Source: Escherichia phage kaaroe. From it: a stretch of 64,000 bases of DNA. The translations under genes were made by a program, and so were the position numbers. Positions 956-63,349 of this stretch are shown piece by piece; the first letter of the stretch is position 1, and each line of letters begins with the position of its first letter. The notes under the pieces were generated by a model. That model ran no database searches and was not told the DNA's origin. It saw nothing but the letters and a program-made list of their open reading frames with translations. The DNA is taken from sequence record MN850574.1. The stretch is one strand, 5' to 3'.

Positions 956-991
956 AAATTAGTTGACACTACTCTATAATGGTTTTATTAT

Positions 992-1024
992 GCCTCCCGT
1001 CGAAAGATTGGAGGCTTTTTTATT
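992..1024 (+). terminator. rho-independent terminator (hairpin GCCTCC..GGAGGC + T-run)
   Basis: GC stem followed by TTTTTTATT directly after gene 56; GGAGG of stem may double as SD for ATG 1025. Confidence 0.6.
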
Positions 1025-1528
1025 ATGCAATTTACACCAGAAGAACTTAACATCATTGATGAAGTGATGAACTCTAAAGAAAATATCGATATGTCGATCC
1101 TTAATGGATTGATCGAAAAGACTGAGCGGTTAGTGCATCATGAAGCCTTGTATCGCGGTGTGAGCAAAAGAGAAGGCCGTAAGCTGGATACCTTAATTGT
1201 TGGTGATTCTTTCGTTGTAGAGCGTCCTATGAGCTTTACGCCACTGCAATCAACAGCAGAGGACTTTGCAACCGATGTTTATGCAACAGGAAAGATTATT
1301 GCAATAAAACCTACCAAGCCTTGCATGAATTATTACGAACATGCTATTGACCGAGTGGTGTCTAAAGAGTATGACAATCCGACTACTCGACTGTCTTTGT
1401 ATGCTATGTTGGCAGATGAGCGCGAGTGCATATACAAGACAGGGACGACCATGATCCTTGATGAGATCGAGGAAGTTTACGCGTGTAACGGCGATCTGAT
1501 AGAGATTTACAAATTTTCTTTAATTTAA
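1025..1528 (+). CDS. putative ADP-ribosyltransferase (ModA/ModB-like)
   Basis: R-S-ExE-like triad (ALYRG ... MSFT ... ERECIY) resembling the Alt catalytic motifs in this window; position between 56 and dda as modA/modB in T4. Confidence 0.5.
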   Translation: MQFTPEELNIIDEVMNSKENIDMSILNGLIEKTERLVHHEALYRGVSKREGRKLDTLIVGDSFVVERPMSFTPLQSTAEDFATDVYATGKIIAIKPTKPCMNYYEHAIDRVVSKEYDNPTTRLSLYAMLADERECIYKTGTTMILDEIEEVYACNGDLIEIYKFSLI

Positions 1529-2345: not shown

Positions 2346-2659
2346 TGCATGTATTTGCTGTATGTTATCGTGATAAAGACGGATTCTTTCAATACTCAGT
2401 GGACGCGAAAGGTCGCGTCCTAACTTGCGAAACACATGATGCTGCGTTAGCGTCAATGTGTGATCAGATAGATTATTGTGAGAGTCTATTGGCGGGTGAA
2501 CCGAAATACAAGGTTGTACCTAAACGAAAATTTGGCATAATCCGGTCTTCTGAAATTGTTCGGGATGGTATCGAATATAAAATTCCTGAATATGAAAAAG
2601 AACGGGTACGGCGAGAACTCAATACTATCTGTGTTCGCAAGGTGAGGATTTTAGGATAA
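2345..2659 (+). CDS. hypothetical protein
   Basis: ORF start overlaps upstream stop (ATAATG); coupled to dda. Confidence 0.5.
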   Translation: MHVFAVCYRDKDGFFQYSVDAKGRVLTCETHDAALASMCDQIDYCESLLAGEPKYKVVPKRKFGIIRSSEIVRDGIEYKIPEYEKERVRRELNTICVRKVRILG

Positions 2660-4050
2660 TGAGCAGAGTATTAACTTTCGATATGTTAACAGACGGGCAA
2701 AAACATGCTTTTGATGTTCTAATGAAACGCATTGAACAAAAGAAGCATACAACTGTCCGTGGTGCGGCGGGTACTGGTAAAACCGCAATGATGAAATTCA
2801 TTGTTCAGGAAATGGTCCGCCGTGGTGTAACTGGTGTGGTTTTGGCAACGCCTACCCACCAGGCTAAAAAAGTTTTGAGTAAAGCGGTAGGTCGTCAAGC
2901 ATTTACTTTACATGCACTACTGCGACTAAACCCGACCAACTATGAAGATACTCAAGTATTTGAGCAAAAAGATACTCCTAAGCTAGATGATGTTCAGATC
3001 ATCATTGTTGATGAAGCGAGTATGGTCGATAAGAAACTATTTGATATTCTCATGAAGAGTATCAACGGTCGAATTGTTATTATTGCCGTGGGTGATCTGT
3101 ACCAGTTACGACCAGTTGATCCGAGCGGTGCAACGTCGATCTCTCCTTTCTTCACCGATGAAAGGTTTCAGAATGTAGAACTTACAGAGATTAAACGATC
3201 TAATGCGCCAATAATTGATGTGGCGACCGCTGTCCGTAATGGTAAATGGGTATTCGAAAAGCAGTGCGGTAACGAGGGTGTATTCCATAGCTCAACTCTG
3301 CCGGAGTTTATGAAGCATTATTTCGAAACCGTTAAAACGCCGGAAGACCTTCTAGAAAACCGTATTCTGGCCTACACTAACAAGAGCGTCGAAAAACTCA
3401 ATGAAATTGTGCGTAAGCGCGTTTATAACACCGATGAACCAGTGATTGTAGATGAAATTCTGGTTACTCAGGAACCATTGATCGAATATCTGCGAGATGA
3501 ACGCGGGAAGAAGATTCCCAATGTTATTTTTAACAATGGTGAGATGATCCGAGTTAAAGAGGTCATCCCGCGTGAATTTACATTACGTTGCACGGGGGTA
3601 GATCCGCAACCAGTTTTAGGATATACTCTGAAAGTGGAAAGCGTCGATGATGACGAAGACAAAGAAATCCTAAATCAGAAAGTCGGTTTAGATGCAGTCG
3701 GAATCACTACAGATAAACCAGATTTAGTAGAAATCAACATTCTGACAGAACAACGTCAGAAGAACATTTTCTCTATCTATCTGAATACGGTCGCCGGACA
3801 ATATCGCGAAATGAAGAAAGAGAATCCAAAATTTAAACCAGATTGGGATTCCTTCTGGACGATGAAGCGTATGTTCTTGAATGTAAAAGCATTACCAGCT
3901 TGCACCATTCATAAGTCACAAGGGATCAGCGTAGACCGCGTGTTCCTGTATACTCCTTGCATGTGTACAGACAATGTTGACTTTGAACTGGCAATGCAGT
4001 TATTATATGTGGGTGTTACCCGTGCGCGGTATCGAGTAGACTATATTTGA
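2659..4050 (+). CDS. dda: Dda DNA helicase (SF1)
   Basis: Walker A GAAGTGKT, APTHQAKKVL, TEIKRSNAPIIDVATAVRNGKW, LLYVGVTRARY match T4 Dda. Confidence 0.93.
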   Translation: MSRVLTFDMLTDGQKHAFDVLMKRIEQKKHTTVRGAAGTGKTAMMKFIVQEMVRRGVTGVVLATPTHQAKKVLSKAVGRQAFTLHALLRLNPTNYEDTQVFEQKDTPKLDDVQIIIVDEASMVDKKLFDILMKSINGRIVIIAVGDLYQLRPVDPSGATSISPFFTDERFQNVELTEIKRSNAPIIDVATAVRNGKWVFEKQCGNEGVFHSSTLPEFMKHYFETVKTPEDLLENRILAYTNKSVEKLNEIVRKRVYNTDEPVIVDEILVTQEPLIEYLRDERGKKIPNVIFNNGEMIRVKEVIPREFTLRCTGVDPQPVLGYTLKVESVDDDEDKEILNQKVGLDAVGITTDKPDLVEINILTEQRQKNIFSIYLNTVAGQYREMKKENPKFKPDWDSFWTMKRMFLNVKALPACTIHKSQGISVDRVFLYTPCMCTDNVDFELAMQLLYVGVTRARYRVDYI

Positions 4051-7240: not shown

Positions 7241-7244
7241 CACT

Positions 7245-50989: not shown

Positions 50990-51002
50990 TTCAAAAAGTT
51001 GT

Positions 51003-57655: not shown

Positions 57656-57831
57656 TAACACCACAACTACACGGTAAAGAGATTTGCGATCTTACTTGGG
57701 AAGAGTTGGTCATGTATCGCGACACCTACAAATGGTTTGAATCCATGAAAGAATTTGTAGCAGCAGTACGAGAAGAAATGAGCATTCGCCAGTATGCGGA
57801 CGCATATATTGAAAAGGTAAGCACACTATGA
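57652..57831 (+). CDS. hypothetical small protein (59 aa, operon gene 5)
   Basis: ATGA overlaps at both ends; manually translated. Confidence 0.4.
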   Translation: MITPQLHGKEICDLTWEELVMYRDTYKWFESMKEFVAAVREEMSIRQYADAYIEKVSTL

Positions 57832-58346
57832 ACCGTTTAACGCCTAAACGCCGTTACTATACCAATACTAAAAACTTTGTCATCTCTGTTTATGAGGCGT
57901 GGTTAGAAGATGGCTTTATCAACATGAACCCAGATTATCAGCGTCCTTTGGTATGGGACACCGAAAACAAACGTATGTTTATCGAAAACCTGATTAATGA
58001 TTTTCCGGTTGGTGCTATCGCAATGGCTAAGATTGATGATGGCTCTCGCTATGAGATCGAAATCGTGGACGGTAAACAGCGTTTAAACGCAATATTCTCC
58101 TTCATGAAGGATGAGTTTAGCATTGCTGGTAATGATGATTCTATGTTGTATTACAGTGATTTTACGCCAGCAGAAAAGCGACGTTTCCGAAATCTCGGAC
58201 TACCCGCGATCATGATGGAAGAGAGCACACGAGAAGACCGATTAGAGTATTTCTACAAAACAAACTTTTTCGGTGTGCCTCAATCGGAAGAACATCGCCA
58301 GCATGTGATTGCCCTATTGCAAGATGAGCAATTAAAAAATAACTAA
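57828..58346 (+). CDS. DUF262/ParB-like nuclease-domain protein (operon gene 6)
   Basis: NPDYQRPLVW and IVDGKQRLNAIF (DGQQR-type) motifs typical of DUF262, the GmrSD N-terminal domain. Confidence 0.6.
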   Translation: MNRLTPKRRYYTNTKNFVISVYEAWLEDGFINMNPDYQRPLVWDTENKRMFIENLINDFPVGAIAMAKIDDGSRYEIEIVDGKQRLNAIFSFMKDEFSIAGNDDSMLYYSDFTPAEKRRFRNLGLPAIMMEESTREDRLEYFYKTNFFGVPQSEEHRQHVIALLQDEQLKNN

Positions 58347-58597: not shown

Positions 58598-58603
58598 AAG
58601 TTG

Positions 58604-58632
58604 TTGACATAACAGAGGGTGTATATCACAAT
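58604..58632 (+). promoter_or_regulatory. early promoter cassette with dyad over -10
   Basis: TTGACA-17-CACAAT; inverted repeat GGGTGTAT/ATACACCC; ATG 58669. Confidence 0.6.
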
Positions 58633-58668
58633 ACACCCATACCGAAACGAACTACTAAGGAGTATCAA

Positions 58669-58881
58669 ATGGCTAACATCGAAATCATCATTACCGACGT
58701 AACTTATGACCGCATTAACGAAATCGGTACTGCATTACTGGAAGATGGAACAACTCGTACCATCAACTACGCAGAATACGTTGAAATGCGCGGTTGTATT
58801 AAACGAGTAGGAAAATATATCCTGATTGAAAAAGACTATTCAGGATACACCTTAGAGCAATTGCTCGATGGTGCATTATAA
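58669..58881 (+). CDS. hypothetical protein
   Basis: AAGGAGTATCAA-ATG cassette. Confidence 0.55.
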   Translation: MANIEIIITDVTYDRINEIGTALLEDGTTRTINYAEYVEMRGCIKRVGKYILIEKDYSGYTLEQLLDGAL

Positions 58882-58885
58882 TAAA

Positions 58886-58908
58886 TGGGGGCGTTAAGCC
58901 CCTTTTTC
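58886..58908 (+). terminator. rho-independent terminator
   Basis: GGGGCGTTAAGCCCC hairpin followed by TTTTTCAT. Confidence 0.7.
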
Positions 58909-58948
58909 ATAAATATAGGTTTATAGGTTATCAACTAGAGGATATAAA

Positions 58949-61000
58949 ATGTTTAACTTAGAAATCGACGATCTAATGATTGAATCTTTCGAGAAATGGC
59001 TGTTGACGGAAGAGGAAGAAAACTTTGGCAGTATTGCTCCGGTACAGTGCTTAAAGCCTAAGCAGAATCCTAAACAGCTTTTTGCAGTACAGACACGCGA
59101 TAAAGATGTGATTGTCCGTCTTTGTAACTTCACCAACAAAACACCTAAAATCATTCGTATGGGTGACAAGACCGCACATGTTGTACTGTGCGAAATGAAC
59201 AAAAGCGGTCGTATTGTACAGCTTAAAAATGGTCTAGGCGATAACCCGATTGCAGTTATGTCAAGTGCTTTTGATGTGGTTATGGAAACAGCCCGTAAAG
59301 CGCAATTAGACGCTGTTATGTTCCGTTTTAACGTATCCCGCATGAAAGGTAAGACCGAACTGGTTAAGCGCGTTATAGAGCGTTTGGTGCGTCGTACACC
59401 GAAGTTTGAAGTATTCCAGCAGGAAGTAATGACCAGCAAAAAGATCGCTTTAGTTGTTGTCAAGCGTCGCGGGATGGCGATTGATAAGATTAAAGGTATT
59501 AAACTTGATGAATCCTTGTTCACTAAAGTAGAAAGTGATTTAGGTGATCGCTGGGTATCTAAGGCTACTGGTGAATCTCTGACTAAAGATGAGGCATATG
59601 CGGCTAGTCTTGTGTCAGAAGAAGAACGAAACGCGGAAGCAGAACAACGCGTAGCGGCTAAATCTCGTTTGACTAAAGAAGAAATGCTGAAAACTCAAGC
59701 GACATATAACAGCGACTACGTGAATCATCCAGAAAAAATTAATCTTAAACCGGAAGAAGATATCACCGAAGCAGAACCTAAGAAACAGTTTAATACTCTG
59801 ATTGACCGTCAAGCCTTAGAACGTTCAACCGCCCGTTCTCTGAATGACTGGACAAGTGATATTATCACTCGCTATGGTTTCATGCGTACTATTTTTGAAA
59901 GCGAAGCCGATGCAAAATACGCAGTAAGCGAACTGGTAAAAGTTCAGGATCAATATGATCCATTGTCTGCGGAAGTTATCGCAGCCTCGGTCAAACGCTT
60001 AAAAGAAATCATGAGCGAGGAAGTATTCGAAAACAAGATCACCGCCCTGGCAATGGATCGAGTAGACCAGTCTATGCCAGCAGATGTAAAAGCTGAAATG
60101 CTGCGTAGTCATATCACCCAGATTAAAACAGATGCCCTACGTAATATTGCCTCCGGTATGTTTGAAGCAATTGCTAGCAACATGGGTGAAATGATGGCAG
60201 ATATTGATCTTGATCTGCCGGGCGCGGAAGGTTTTGTGTTGAGCGAATATGCCGATGCAGCATACATCAATATGAACAACTTCCTAACCGACCGTAAGCT
60301 GGAAGAGTTTGAAGGCATCGCAGATCCAGAAGAATTGGTCAAGATGTGCGATGCACTGGATAATGCCTTCTCCAACTATGGCGTTAAACTTGATCCGGGT
60401 ACTATTCTGTATCGTGGTATGGACTTCCGGTCGCAAATGTGGGAAACTGCACGTAAGCAAAAAGCGTTTTACTTTAAAAACTATGTGAGCACTTCCCTTG
60501 CACCTAACATTTTTGGCGGCTGGAATGCAAACGTGGCTAGTGCCGTTGCTGGTGTTGATTCTATGGCTGGCTCTCGCGGTGAAGGTGGCGCTAATGTTGC
60601 TTTCTCCATTGCTGGCGCGGAAAACATCCCTGTATTGCCAGTAGGTAACAAAGCATTTGCTTACAAAGAATGCGAGATTTTACTTCCTCGCGGTGTTGTG
60701 TTATCCTTTGATACGGTAACTCGTGCTACGGCATCGACGGATTCACAAGAAACTTATTACATCGAGGCACATATTATGAACAAAAATGAACTGGCAGCAT
60801 TACAAGAATCTGGCGAGATGATCGCGGACGGTGATGCATTCATCCGTGAAGGTGTTGTTAAACCGGCTTCTGACCTGTCTTTCTCCAGCTTCATTAGCGA
60901 AGCTAAAACCGAACGTAAGAAAGCAGATAAGGCAACTCTACGTCAGCTTATCGCTGATCTGGTATCTGTAGACGCAATGCCAGATAAATTTAAAATGTAA
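58949..61000 (+). CDS. alt: ADP-ribosyltransferase Alt (virion-packaged)
   Basis: 683 aa (T4 Alt 682); SLFTKVESDLGD, LYRGMDFRS, FYFKNYVSTSLAPNIFGG, ECEILLPRG (R-S-ExE) match T4 Alt. Confidence 0.9.
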   Translation: MFNLEIDDLMIESFEKWLLTEEEENFGSIAPVQCLKPKQNPKQLFAVQTRDKDVIVRLCNFTNKTPKIIRMGDKTAHVVLCEMNKSGRIVQLKNGLGDNPIAVMSSAFDVVMETARKAQLDAVMFRFNVSRMKGKTELVKRVIERLVRRTPKFEVFQQEVMTSKKIALVVVKRRGMAIDKIKGIKLDESLFTKVESDLGDRWVSKATGESLTKDEAYAASLVSEEERNAEAEQRVAAKSRLTKEEMLKTQATYNSDYVNHPEKINLKPEEDITEAEPKKQFNTLIDRQALERSTARSLNDWTSDIITRYGFMRTIFESEADAKYAVSELVKVQDQYDPLSAEVIAASVKRLKEIMSEEVFENKITALAMDRVDQSMPADVKAEMLRSHITQIKTDALRNIASGMFEAIASNMGEMMADIDLDLPGAEGFVLSEYADAAYINMNNFLTDRKLEEFEGIADPEELVKMCDALDNAFSNYGVKLDPGTILYRGMDFRSQMWETARKQKAFYFKNYVSTSLAPNIFGGWNANVASAVAGVDSMAGSRGEGGANVAFSIAGAENIPVLPVGNKAFAYKECEILLPRGVVLSFDTVTRATASTDSQETYYIEAHIMNKNELAALQESGEMIADGDAFIREGVVKPASDLSFSSFISEAKTERKKADKATLRQLIADLVSVDAMPDKFKM

Positions 61001-61017
61001 TTTTTAAGAAATAATGG

Positions 61018-61046
61018 TTGACTCAAACGGGGACTAGTTTTATACT
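61018..61046 (+). promoter_or_regulatory. promoter with dyad flanking -10
   Basis: TTGACT-17-TATACT; CGGGGACTAGT / ACTAGCCCCG inverted repeat; ATG 61079. Confidence 0.55.
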
Positions 61047-61078
61047 AGCCCCGTTTTCTGTTATATGGGAGGTTTAAA

Positions 61079-61903
61079 ATGTTCAAGAAATTACAGGATT
61101 TTCGTCTTTCAGAAGAATCACGCGAATCAATGATGGAACGTATGGATAATTACATCGAAACATATGACATTGAGGGGATTAATGGTTACATGATCACTGA
61201 GATGATCAGCGATCAGATTAACTTTGATGATTATGTGAAGGTTATCCGCTTCCTTGAGCGCGAGACACAAGATTATGGATTTGTAAAGAAAATCATTAAT
61301 GTGATGTATGAAGTACACTCCGAAGACTTTGGAGATAATGTATTCAAACATTACAAACATAACAACATAACCCCAGCAGAATATAATGCAATCTGTGATT
61401 ATGTGTCTGAACAATACGAATGGGTAAATGGTGCTCTCTTAGGGGAAGAAGACATGACCGATGAGATATCAGAGATTGTTGATTTGATGGATTGTGTCAT
61501 GGATAAAACCGAAAAGTTAAACGGTACTCTTTATCGAGGTCAACATCTTGACATTCAGACAATAGAGCGTATCATTGAAGATAAGGAGTTTACCTTTAAA
61601 AACTTTGTATCTACCAGCATGACACCGATCATCTTTGGAGGATGGCTATCAAACAGCACTAGCCTTTATTGTGAGAATCGATATGAATCAATGACCGGAA
61701 AGATGCAACATTCTTGTAATGTATCATGGGTAATTGACGTAAAAGATCATAAAGGTTTTGTTGTTGGGTCAATTGCATGGAACCCTTGCGAATGTGAAGT
61801 AATTTTACCGCGAGGGACTTGCGTCAAGGTAAACGACGTAGTAGAATCTTTCGGCGATGAGAATCGTAGACAATTTACAATTTTCGGTGAGGTGACTAAA
61901 TGA
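61079..61903 (+). CDS. second ADP-ribosyltransferase (Alt/Mod-like paralog)
   Basis: LYRGQHLD, FKNFVSTSMTPIIFGG, ECEVILPRG triad aligned to the Alt C-terminal domain. Confidence 0.75.
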   Translation: MFKKLQDFRLSEESRESMMERMDNYIETYDIEGINGYMITEMISDQINFDDYVKVIRFLERETQDYGFVKKIINVMYEVHSEDFGDNVFKHYKHNNITPAEYNAICDYVSEQYEWVNGALLGEEDMTDEISEIVDLMDCVMDKTEKLNGTLYRGQHLDIQTIERIIEDKEFTFKNFVSTSMTPIIFGGWLSNSTSLYCENRYESMTGKMQHSCNVSWVIDVKDHKGFVVGSIAWNPCECEVILPRGTCVKVNDVVESFGDENRRQFTIFGEVTK

Positions 61904-62385
61904 AAATGATTAAACTGATTGGTCTTGCGGCTGCATTCATGCTTACTGGTTGTGCCAACATGGAAGCTATGATGAATGCTAAATCAGATCCGGTTTTCTT
62001 GCTTCGTGAATGTAAAGCAGCATATGCAAGTGATGATCAGATCGAATCATGCTTTATTTCTAAAATGGAACGTCGAGACGTAGATCGAGTTAAAGTTGGT
62101 TTAGCACCACAAACGCAGATGTTCAAGGAGGCAATCAAAGAAGCGCGGGAAGAGAAAGCACAAGAAGAAAAGAAGCGTCAAGAAGAATTGCGCAAGCAGA
62201 AAGAAGAGTCTATACAACTTGAGAAGATGAAAGCGCGGGATCGCTGTATTATCATGTCTGACATGCAGATAGAGCAAGAAGCAAGAAAGGCAGCATTAAA
62301 CGGTGATTATGACCGTTATGAAGAACTTAACAGCGCAGAATTTCAAACTAAGGCACTAAAATATTGCAATGATTTAGCAAAATAA
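61900..62385 (+). CDS. putative lipoprotein with K/E-rich C-terminus
   Basis: Signal peptide with lipobox LTGC (MKMIKLIGLAAAFMLTGC); ATGA overlap with upstream ORF. Confidence 0.55.
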   Translation: MKMIKLIGLAAAFMLTGCANMEAMMNAKSDPVFLLRECKAAYASDDQIESCFISKMERRDVDRVKVGLAPQTQMFKEAIKEAREEKAQEEKKRQEELRKQKEESIQLEKMKARDRCIIMSDMQIEQEARKAALNGDYDRYEELNSAEFQTKALKYCNDLAK

Positions 62386-62388
62386 AAA

Positions 62389-62412
62389 GGCGGGGATAAT
62401 CCCCGCCTTTCG
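62389..62412. terminator. bidirectional hairpin terminator between convergent genes
   Basis: GGCGGGGA-TAA-TCCCCGCC flanked by A-run upstream and TTTCGC downstream; between + ORF and minus-strand gene 54. Confidence 0.7.
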
Positions 62413-62416
62413 CTTA

Positions 62417-63349
62417 TCAGAACCAGTTAGTGACAGTATTCACCACACGCCCACCAACGCCATTTAGACGCGATAAAGCATTACCAGCAGCAGATAACCC
62501 ACTATCAAGTAAATTATTGCCGAAAGTGTTTGTTATTGCGTTTATTGCCTTATCCTCAATCCATTCTCGCGCGGCTTGCTCTCCTACAGCACCAGTTTGC
62601 ATAGTCCTATACGCAAAAGTAACATCGAATGTTGTAATTTCGTTGTTATTTTCATAGGTTAATTCCGGTGCACTCACACCAACAGGAACACAACCATTAA
62701 ACATCATGATCGTGTGAGGAACTCCCATTCGGTTATGTAAGTTAACCTGAATATCTGCTTCAACGTCAACAGGAAGCGCACGAAGCCCTGTAACGGGGTC
62801 TTCTACTGAGTTAACCCAATCCTGCATTGCTCTATAGTTTGATGCGCTAGAGTCCATTCTAAAGCTCAATACAAGCGGATCGAAATCACGTCCGGTAATT
62901 CGAATGTTTGGCGCATTGTGGTTACGGTCCATTTCATAATTCAATCTGTTTTCTGGAACCTTAACAGCATACACCAGAAGACCGCTTGTCTTATATGCCA
63001 TATTGAACCAGTCAAGCGCATATGTACCAACATCAAATTGCCCCAGAAGAGATTGAACTACGCGGGATGACATTGCACCTAAAAGATACTTTTTGACACC
63101 GGATGAATCAACAGCACGCCTAACACCCTGTACAGCAAGATTTGTTAATGCGTCAGTATAATCACCACGAGTAATCCCGAAATAGTCATTTAATGCATTT
63201 GGTATAATATCATATACCGCACCGCCCATACTTTCTAGGATCGCTTGTGTCTTATTACTTGGAGTGGTGGCAAATGCCACGCTGAATAAGTTAGATCGCT
63301 GAAAGTCAAGGTTAGCGGCTTGTTCGTTAAAATCATTTAAATCAAACAT
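62417..63349 (-). CDS. 54: baseplate tail-tube initiator gp54
   Basis: FNMAYKTSGLLVYAVKVPENRLNYE, NIRITGRDFDPLVLSFRMDS, NYRAMQDWVNSVEDPVTGLRALP match T4 gp54. Confidence 0.93.
   Translation of the reverse strand: MFDLNDFNEQAANLDFQRSNLFSVAFATTPSNKTQAILESMGGAVYDIIPNALNDYFGITRGDYTDALTNLAVQGVRRAVDSSGVKKYLLGAMSSRVVQSLLGQFDVGTYALDWFNMAYKTSGLLVYAVKVPENRLNYEMDRNHNAPNIRITGRDFDPLVLSFRMDSSASNYRAMQDWVNSVEDPVTGLRALPVDVEADIQVNLHNRMGVPHTIMMFNGCVPVGVSAPELTYENNNEITTFDVTFAYRTMQTGAVGEQAAREWIEDKAINAITNTFGNNLLDSGLSAAGNALSRLNGVGGRVVNTVTNWF

Follow-up and report, generated by a model that had tools for sequence, protein, structure and literature searches.

Three ADP-ribosyltransferase (ART) genes are encoded within the 64,000-nucleotide (nt) stretch of Escherichia phage kaaroe analyzed here (sequence record MN850574.1; the whole stretch is referred to as the window), and the account of them that is judged probable as a whole comprises a late Alt enzyme that is packaged in the head, a shorter, early, cytoplasmic, and arginine-specific paralog encoded immediately downstream (the short ART), and an early Mod-type enzyme. 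The proteins are 683, 274, and 167 amino acids (aa) long, respectively, and there is very little doubt that all three genes encode mono-ADP-ribosyltransferases carrying the R-S-ExE motif. Within this account, the analysis shows directly the homologies, the intact catalytic residues, the synteny, the fold predicted for the 274-aa protein, the purifying selection, and the motifs of promoters and terminators along with how well these are conserved. All three open reading frames (ORFs) are present where the initial annotation, made without database searches, had placed them:

58949..61000, + strand: alt, encoding a full-length Alt ART of 683 aa (BLASTP match to T4 Alt, PHROG 802, Pfam PF03496)
61079..61903, + strand: short Alt paralog of 274 aa, corresponding to RB49 ORF183c / NP_891754.1 (PF03496, hhalign, AlphaFold2 (AF2) model, Foldseek)
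1025..1528, + strand: single ModB/ModA-type ART gene, 167 aa (BLASTP match to ModB/ModA, PHROG 832, catalytic columns)

When positions 58600-62500 were used as a megablast query, 58 phage records matched at 98.6-99.4% nucleotide identity with the whole query covered. All 58 belong to Krischvirus (RB49, phi1, JSE, GEC-3S, and others), and the window is therefore assigned to an RB49-like (Krischvirus) T4-type coliphage. The genes are not new to the databases. The 683-aa gene carries the alt label in RB49 and GEC-3S (in RefSeq RB49, NP_891755.1 is annotated Alt), the 274-aa gene of RB49 (NP_891754.1) is labeled 'ADP-ribosyltransferase; similar to C-terminal part of T4 Alt protein' in RefSeq, and GenBank names the third (167-aa) gene of RB49 modB. 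Nolan et al. (2006) listed RB49ORF183c, 44RRORF188c, and T4 alt.-1/alt.-2 as alt paralogs that arose by duplication, with 44RRORF187c being a full-length alt duplicate (PMC1524935), and the type of promoter cassette found upstream of the short ART gene was already published in 2010 (PMC2839356). The three ART genes, their paralogy, and the promoter cassette are thus correctly identified but already known from databases and literature, and no new kind of object is added here.

Catalytic domains of Alt and the short ART

The R / S-T-S / E-x-E triad claimed in the initial annotation is intact in both Alt (LYR489G, S514-T-S516, E574-C-E576) and the short ART (LYR153G, S178-T-S180, E238-C-E240), with an S-F-T variant of the middle motif in the 167-aa protein. 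Residues 31-681 of the 683-aa protein align collinearly with T4 Alt (gpAlt, P12726) at 27% identity (BLASTP, E 2e-61), and the protein also matches the Alt family PHROG 802 (E 1.6e-179) and Pfam family PF03496 (ADPrib_exo_Tox; 37.3 bits against a cut-off of 23.4, E 2.4e-9). In an alignment of four Alts, the best-conserved part outside the catalytic core is the first ~230 residues. The 683-aa protein is collinear with T4 Alt over its full length, with both the N-terminal ~390 residues and the C-terminal tail aligned, and the 274-aa protein is not; on this alignment the 683-aa alt is the ortholog of T4 Alt. Differences from RB49 and GEC-3S within alt are mostly synonymous (17 synonymous/4 non-synonymous and 26/4, respectively).

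The short ART matches PF03496 more strongly than Alt does (59.3 bits against the same cut-off of 23.4, E 4.3e-16), and its match to the PHROG ADP-ribosyltransferase family has an E-value of 2.6e-198. It is 37% identical to the neighboring Alt over 109 aa of the catalytic core (E 1e-16) and 31% identical to T4 Alt over 181 aa (E 1e-23), the latter match being rather better than that to its neighbor. When the short family was compared with four Alts by hhalign, residues 65-273 paired with residues 395-610 of the window Alt (probability 99.9, E 2.5e-34). Because only this part aligns, the short ART lacks the N-terminal ~390 and the C-terminal ~75 residues of Alt, the latter being a tail with a conserved DGD...MPxKF signature. 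The 'distinct N-terminal region' proposed in the initial annotation therefore holds for approximately residues 1-64, which cannot be aligned to Alt by profile-profile comparison, and does not hold for the remainder, which is the catalytic half of Alt. The PHROG 802 alignment begins as early as residue 8 of the short ART, probably because the core carries a long profile match. When residues 1-95 were searched exhaustively with phmmer against 1.8 billion representatives, no relatives of this region were recovered: the hits were one fragment of the short ART itself and P0013, a repeat-rich protein of 592 aa that was considered as a relative and rejected as a compositional artefact.

No variation is seen in the R, STS, and ExE columns when the short-ART family is aligned with two Alts and another two Alt-like proteins. 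The AF2 model of the short ART, built from ten sequences, has a mean predicted local distance difference test score (pLDDT) of 82.4 and a predicted template modeling score (pTM) of 0.81, and consists of seven N-terminal helices followed by a beta core; pLDDT falls below 50 only at residues 187-196 and 203-208, in the loop after the STS motif. A Foldseek search of the model against the PDB returned Certhrax, CDTa, C3bot1/2, C2-I, Vis, iota, and Plx2a with E-values of 1e-11 to 1e-9, and the modeled fold is of the C3/iota R-S-E type. Pairwise, profile, and (for the 274-aa protein) structural comparisons thus agree with the initial annotation that Alt and an Alt-derived ART of 274 aa are encoded in tandem. 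An E-x-E rather than Q-x-E motif is the pattern of arginine-specific members of the ART family, and the short ART is most likely arginine-specific by this residue pattern. The NCBIfam scan gave no matches for any of the five proteins tried.

Transcription signals around alt and the short ART gene

The intergenic regions before the two tandem genes contain the following signals:

58887..58907, + strand: intrinsic-terminator-like hairpin GGGGGCGTTAAGCCCC followed by five Ts, predicted to end the upstream early transcription unit before alt (sequence scan)
58908..58915, + strand: T4-type late-promoter-like motif CATAAATA, 33 nt before the alt start codon (motif match)
61018..61062, + strand: promoter cassette combining a sigma-70-type promoter, a terminator hairpin, and a T-rich tail TTTTCTGTT (scan, conservation)
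61067..61072, + strand: Shine-Dalgarno sequence GGGAGG of the short ART gene, ending 6 nt before the ATG at 61079

The late-type motif HATAAATA is strongly under-represented in the window, which consists mostly of early genes (5 occurrences against 18 +/- 4 expected from shuffles). Within 57-64 kilobases (kb) of the window its sole occurrence is that upstream of alt, and the same scan found no late-promoter motif before the short ART gene. In a distant relative (L005), a hairpin, a T-run, and AATAAATA occupy the same place upstream of alt. In these phages the late motif shows poor conservation of its first T (PMC1524935). T4 alt is a late gene (PMC9697503), and its product is a head protein present in ~40 copies, from which gp21 removes a small N-terminal peptide (PMC9958956). 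By analogy with T4, the window alt would be read from the late-type promoter and its product packaged in the head, trimmed at the N-terminus by the prohead protease, and injected with the DNA, after which it would ADP-ribosylate host proteins, for instance the alpha subunit of RNA polymerase, at arginine residues. Alt does contain a tripeptide L19-T-E21, but this motif is too short to count as evidence of prohead-protease processing.

The signals before the short ART gene are of a different type. The initial annotation assigned this gene its own promoter, and a consensus match is indeed found (-35 box TTGACT at 61018-61023, 17-nt spacer, -10 box TATACT at 61041-61046), which can be refined to an early-type promoter lying within a PeSL ('promoter-early stem-loop') cassette, a class described for RB49 and phi1 (PMC2839356; PMC4122927). 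A PeSL is defined as an intergenic sigma-70-like promoter with a stem-loop that lies between the -35 and -10 boxes or overlaps them, followed by a Shine-Dalgarno sequence and start codon (PMC2839356), and this arrangement is found at 61018-61078 as well as at 963-1024, before the mod gene. The hairpin arms of the copy at the short ART gene (61027-61037 and 61045-61054) are interleaved with the promoter. With the start site placed ~6-8 nt after the -10 box (our own estimate), the predicted start falls within or after the 3' hairpin arm, so that transcripts from the cassette's own promoter cannot form the terminator whereas read-through transcripts from alt can. Strong sigma-70 promoter activity and terminator activity have been shown for other PeSLs with lacZ fusions (PMC2839356). 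The 60-nt element is near-invariant in five relatives although their short ART proteins are only 41-83% identical, and the CTAG/CTAG outer stem is replaced in relatives by other pairing sequences (e.g., TCAG/CTGA in L013). The GEC-3S record also annotates a promoter at this position upstream of the short ART gene.

Across the window, approximately 20 early-type promoters with a G/C-rich inverted repeat on the + strand correspond to the PeSL cassettes described for RB49 and phi1 (PMC2839356); + strand examples, counting that of the short ART gene, are found at 7244, 16289, 42639, 42920, 43145, 51002, 51396, 52522, 52754, 56045, 58355, 58604, and 61018. At 51002, 51396, 52522, and 58355 the inverted repeat GGGGATCnnnGATCCCC fills the 17-nt spacer exactly, and in other PeSLs of the window the -10 hexamer is located in the hairpin loop.

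The Mod-type gene

The 167-aa protein (motifs LYR44G, S70-F-T72, and E132-R-E134) matches T4 ModB (BLASTP, E 8e-11), T4 ModA (E 2e-6), and PHROG 832 ('RNA polymerase ADP-ribosylase', E 1e-20), and the precomputed Pfam assignment of near-identical cluster representatives is PF26816; these matches place it in the Mod family, separate from the PF03496 Alt/VIP2 family. ModA acts on the RNA polymerase alpha subunit and ModB on ribosomal protein S1, the latter by RNAylation; the sequence of the 167-aa protein does not discriminate between a ModA-like and a ModB-like action, and its nearest relative is ModB. R44, S70, E132, and E134 are invariant with ModA (R72, E163, E165) and ModB (R73, E171, E173), the ModA residue numbers being taken from the present alignment and ModB R73 being confirmed by the literature (PMC10468400). 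Both T4 enzymes carry the R-S-EXE motif of arginine-specific ARTs, and R73 is the ModB residue that was mutated to abolish activity (PMC10468400). Since the R, STS/S, and ExE columns are invariant in these alignments, the catalytic Arg and Glu residues are conserved in both the 274-aa and the 167-aa proteins, and the reading of both as ARTs in the initial annotation stands.

The gene lies at the modA/modB position, as had been proposed, upstream of the same srd-dda.1-dda order as in T4:

963..1021, + strand: PeSL-type promoter and hairpin GCCTCC...GGAGGC (992-1015) followed by six Ts, upstream of the mod gene (scan)
1590-2345, + strand: Srd gene, 251 aa (phrog_1400, 6.4e-74)
2345-2659, + strand: gene in the dda.1 position, 104 aa (position)
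2659-4050, + strand: helicase ORF in the dda position, 463 aa (assigned by position and sequence motifs)

The mod promoter consists of TTGACA (963-968), a 17-nt spacer, and TATTAT (986-991). In this PeSL (963-1024), the hairpin (992-1015) contains the Shine-Dalgarno sequence GGAGG in its 3' arm and is followed by the six Ts, and transcription from the cassette's own promoter is predicted to start where the 5' arm ends; termination and masking of the ribosome-binding site would affect read-through transcripts only. Many T4-type phages have two Mod-like loci, RB49 a single one.

Proposed roles and the question of packaging

Under the favored explanation, the short ART would be an old, conserved alt paralog that retains only the catalytic half, joined to a fast-evolving, helical N-terminus of ~64 residues. 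An early sigma-70-type promoter, lying inside the terminator at which alt transcription ends, would drive the short ART gene together with a lipoprotein-like gene downstream, and the enzyme would stay in the cytoplasm and ADP-ribosylate arginines of host proteins after infection. In timing the enzyme would resemble T4 ModA and ModB, and in its catalytic domain Alt. The 167-aa gene would be the phage's single Mod-type ART, nearest to ModB, likewise early and located at the T4 mod-srd-dda.1-dda position. What we infer in this account is when the genes are expressed, the absence of the short ART from the virion, the specificity for arginine, and the targets; on balance, the evidence leans towards the short ART being an early enzyme that is not packaged.

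Several observations weigh against this explanation. The late-promoter-like motif before alt, CATAAATA, matches TATAAATA at seven of eight positions, and an early promoter before the short ART gene is compatible with packaging, which constitutes the main uncertainty. The short ART contains a tripeptide L10-S-E12, and a similar (L/I)-x-E occurs within the first ~15 residues of five of six family members as read by eye from the alignment. The 167-aa protein has no match in the scanned Pfam library (PF03496 included), its AF2 model, made from an alignment of four sequences, is unusable (pLDDT 46), a profile search of the PDB with the Mod-family alignment gave a best E-value of 0.45 (to the ExE region of XopAI), and an hhalign comparison of the Mod profile with the Alt-type profile yielded a probability of 2.3%, albeit in the correct register; the missing Pfam match, failed model, and insignificant profile matches leave homology to T4 ModA/ModB to carry the assignment by itself. 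Literature searches on RB49-like phages returned neither virion proteomics nor expression data, and no expression, proteomic, or enzymatic data for any Krischvirus ART were found in the searched literature.

The tripeptide bears on the best surviving of the alternatives, which holds that the short ART is a second virion-packaged, injected effector with a different N-terminal targeting or processing signal. (L/I)-x-E is the cleavage consensus of the prohead protease, although as a short motif, frequent by chance, it is weak evidence even where most short-ART members carry it near the N-terminus. The gene also adjoins alt and virion genes, and ~44% of phage ARTs occur in contexts that suggest head packaging (PMC9503650). 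Set against these points, the short ART has neither the N-terminal ~390 residues common to Alt orthologs nor the conserved C-terminal tail, and its promoter is of the early type, the one late motif of the region standing before alt. A packaged short ART is accordingly viewed as improbable, and the early, cytoplasmic enzyme is preferred. The inference in the initial annotation that the 274-aa protein may differ from Alt in target or packaging behavior is reasonable given its distinct N-terminus and promoter.

A further-reaching conjecture, to be regarded as speculative and unlikely in its entirety, is that the early short Alt paralog took over the job of T4 ModA and completes the ADP-ribosylation of RNA polymerase alpha begun by injected Alt, that its ~64-residue N-terminus and the loop after STS set a target range different from that of Alt, and that the PeSL-bounded pair of ART and lipoprotein might move as a recombination module. 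A modest hypothesis is that the short ART may substitute for the missing second Mod enzyme.

The lipoprotein-like gene and flanking region

Downstream of the short ART gene lie the following features:

61900..62385, + strand: gene for a lipoprotein-like protein of 161 aa, with an ATGA overlap with the stop codon of the short ART gene, in the same transcription unit
62385..62411, bidirectional: terminator hairpin between the lipoprotein-like gene and the convergent gp54 gene (scan; terminator annotation on both strands in GEC-3S)

The lipobox L-T-G-C18 and four further Cys residues of the 161-aa protein are invariant in six family members, and phage W115 annotates the gene 'putative lipoprotein'. 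In all relatives for which downstream sequence was recovered, the gene comes after the short ART; it evolves fast, with 29-48% identity in relatives and synonymous/non-synonymous differences of 0/2 versus RB49 and 4/4 versus GEC-3S. The ATGA overlap, the shared transcription unit, and this constant co-occurrence could indicate that the ART and the lipoprotein act as a unit (e.g., in superinfection exclusion, or as a toxin and its protective partner), as opposed to host takeover by the ART alone, particularly since some ART toxins have dedicated partners (PDB matches 6dre and 8za7) and the N-terminus of the lipoprotein-like protein weakly resembles the Cor exclusion protein (PHROG, E 0.006). 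The Cor match is, however, confined to the signal peptide, overlapping genes are commonplace in T4-type genomes, and the signal peptide, lipobox, and four conserved cysteines point to export of the lipoprotein-like protein to the envelope, a different compartment from that of a cytoplasmic ART without a signal peptide. Joint action of the two proteins is thus given very little credence, and the short ART would more probably act by itself.

The lipoprotein-like protein showed no similarity to T4 alt.-3 when the two were compared, and the two genes, though in the same slot, are therefore unrelated. Beyond 62385 the genes are convergent baseplate/tail-tube genes. On the upstream side of alt, a 172-aa ORF (57828-58346, + strand) contains ...DYQRPLVWD... 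and ...VDGKQRLNAI... and matches only PHROG families of unknown function (phrog_1583, 1.5e-52); these motifs resemble the DUF262/ParB-like N-terminal domain of GmrSD-type enzymes.

Conservation and origin of the short ART

The short ART is full length in all 58 Krischvirus records, at 95.3-99.9% nucleotide and 97.1-100% protein identity. Relative to RB49 and GEC-3S it has 16 and 11 synonymous differences, respectively (27 in total), and 0 non-synonymous ones, a pattern that indicates strong purifying selection. Metagenomic relatives (83, 63, 48, 44, and 45% identity) keep every catalytic residue, and the order alt, short ART, 155-170-aa gene, convergent gp54 is retained in metagenomic relatives of 41-83% identity. 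Intactness in all genomes, the selection pattern, the residues kept, and the gene order together argue that the short ART is a maintained gene and not a relic.

Alt-derived material is found in the slot between alt and gp54 in other T4-type phages too. T4 alt.-1 matches residues 1-62 of Alt (56% identity) and alt.-2 matches residues 63-117 (62%), while a T4-like metagenomic contig (L008, 3083-7248) carries, after a full alt, a second alt copy that is divided between two overlapping ORFs, the N-terminal one of 273 aa and the C-terminal one of 415 aa, the latter with its ART domain and tail intact. T4 alt.-1 and alt.-2 resemble decayed remains of an N-terminal ORF such as the 273-aa one of this contig. 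While these alt fragments elsewhere might suggest that the short ART is likewise a decaying, functionless remnant of a duplicated alt, like T4 alt.-1/alt.-2, the pseudogene reading is rejected on the selection pattern and is effectively refuted, given a gene intact in 58/58 genomes with 27 synonymous and 0 non-synonymous differences, catalytic residues invariant down to 41% identity, a conserved dedicated promoter and ribosome-binding site, and a model that folds confidently.

In a distance tree of catalytic cores, the short ARTs form their own clade, at a distance of 0.70-0.83 to Krischvirus Alts, T4-type Alts, and second copies. As they are approximately equidistant from all Alts, the duplication is old, and the short gene is no recent copy of its neighbor. 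A comparison of one relative (L015) with window positions 59187-62700 revealed 87-99% nucleotide identity through alt and the PeSL, an abrupt fall to 69-75% in the 5' half of the short ART gene, a return to 84-89% in the catalytic half, 61-69% in the lipoprotein-like gene, and ~90% in gp54; judged from these identities, the pattern is a mosaic with its break exactly at the PeSL.

Comparison with known systems

Phage ARTs reprogram host transcription and translation, and T4 ModB has reportedly been shown of late to attach RNA to proteins, so the ART repertoire of a related phage is of some interest. Krischviruses would possess three ARTs, like T4, having arrived at this number by another route (Alt, one Mod, and a catalytic fragment derived from Alt, versus Alt, ModA, and ModB), and this difference would make the short ART a reasonable candidate for target discovery.

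Compared individually, the 683-aa protein resembles T4 Alt in its R / STS / ExE residues, its C-terminal DGD...MPxKF tail, its slot beside gp54, and its putative late-type promoter. The short ART has the catalytic half in common with T4 Alt and differs in its unrelated ~64-aa N-terminus and early-type promoter; from RB49 ORF183c and the 58 Krischvirus orthologs, which occupy the same locus, it differs in nothing of substance, the phage being another isolate of the same genus. The 167-aa gene is homologous to T4 ModA and ModB, with invariant R/S/ExE columns, an early promoter, and a location upstream of srd-dda.1-dda, but there is one such gene in place of the ModA and ModB pair of T4, and its product is ~30 residues shorter at the N-terminus. 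The cassette before the short ART gene shares with the PeSLs of RB49 and phi1 the promoter/stem-loop architecture and the intergenic position followed by a Shine-Dalgarno sequence and start codon; unlike them, it has a full T-rich tail, keeps its position across deep relatives, and flanks no shuffled ORFan. Finally, the clostridial-type toxins of PF03496 (C3, iota, CDTa, VIP2, and Vis) have the same fold (as modeled) and catalytic motifs as the short ART, with a template modeling (TM) score of ~0.6-0.7 on the target at a sequence identity of just 12-19%, and the short ART is distinguished from C3/iota-type toxins by the lack of a secretion or binding component and by the long, low-confidence loop (187-208) after STS.

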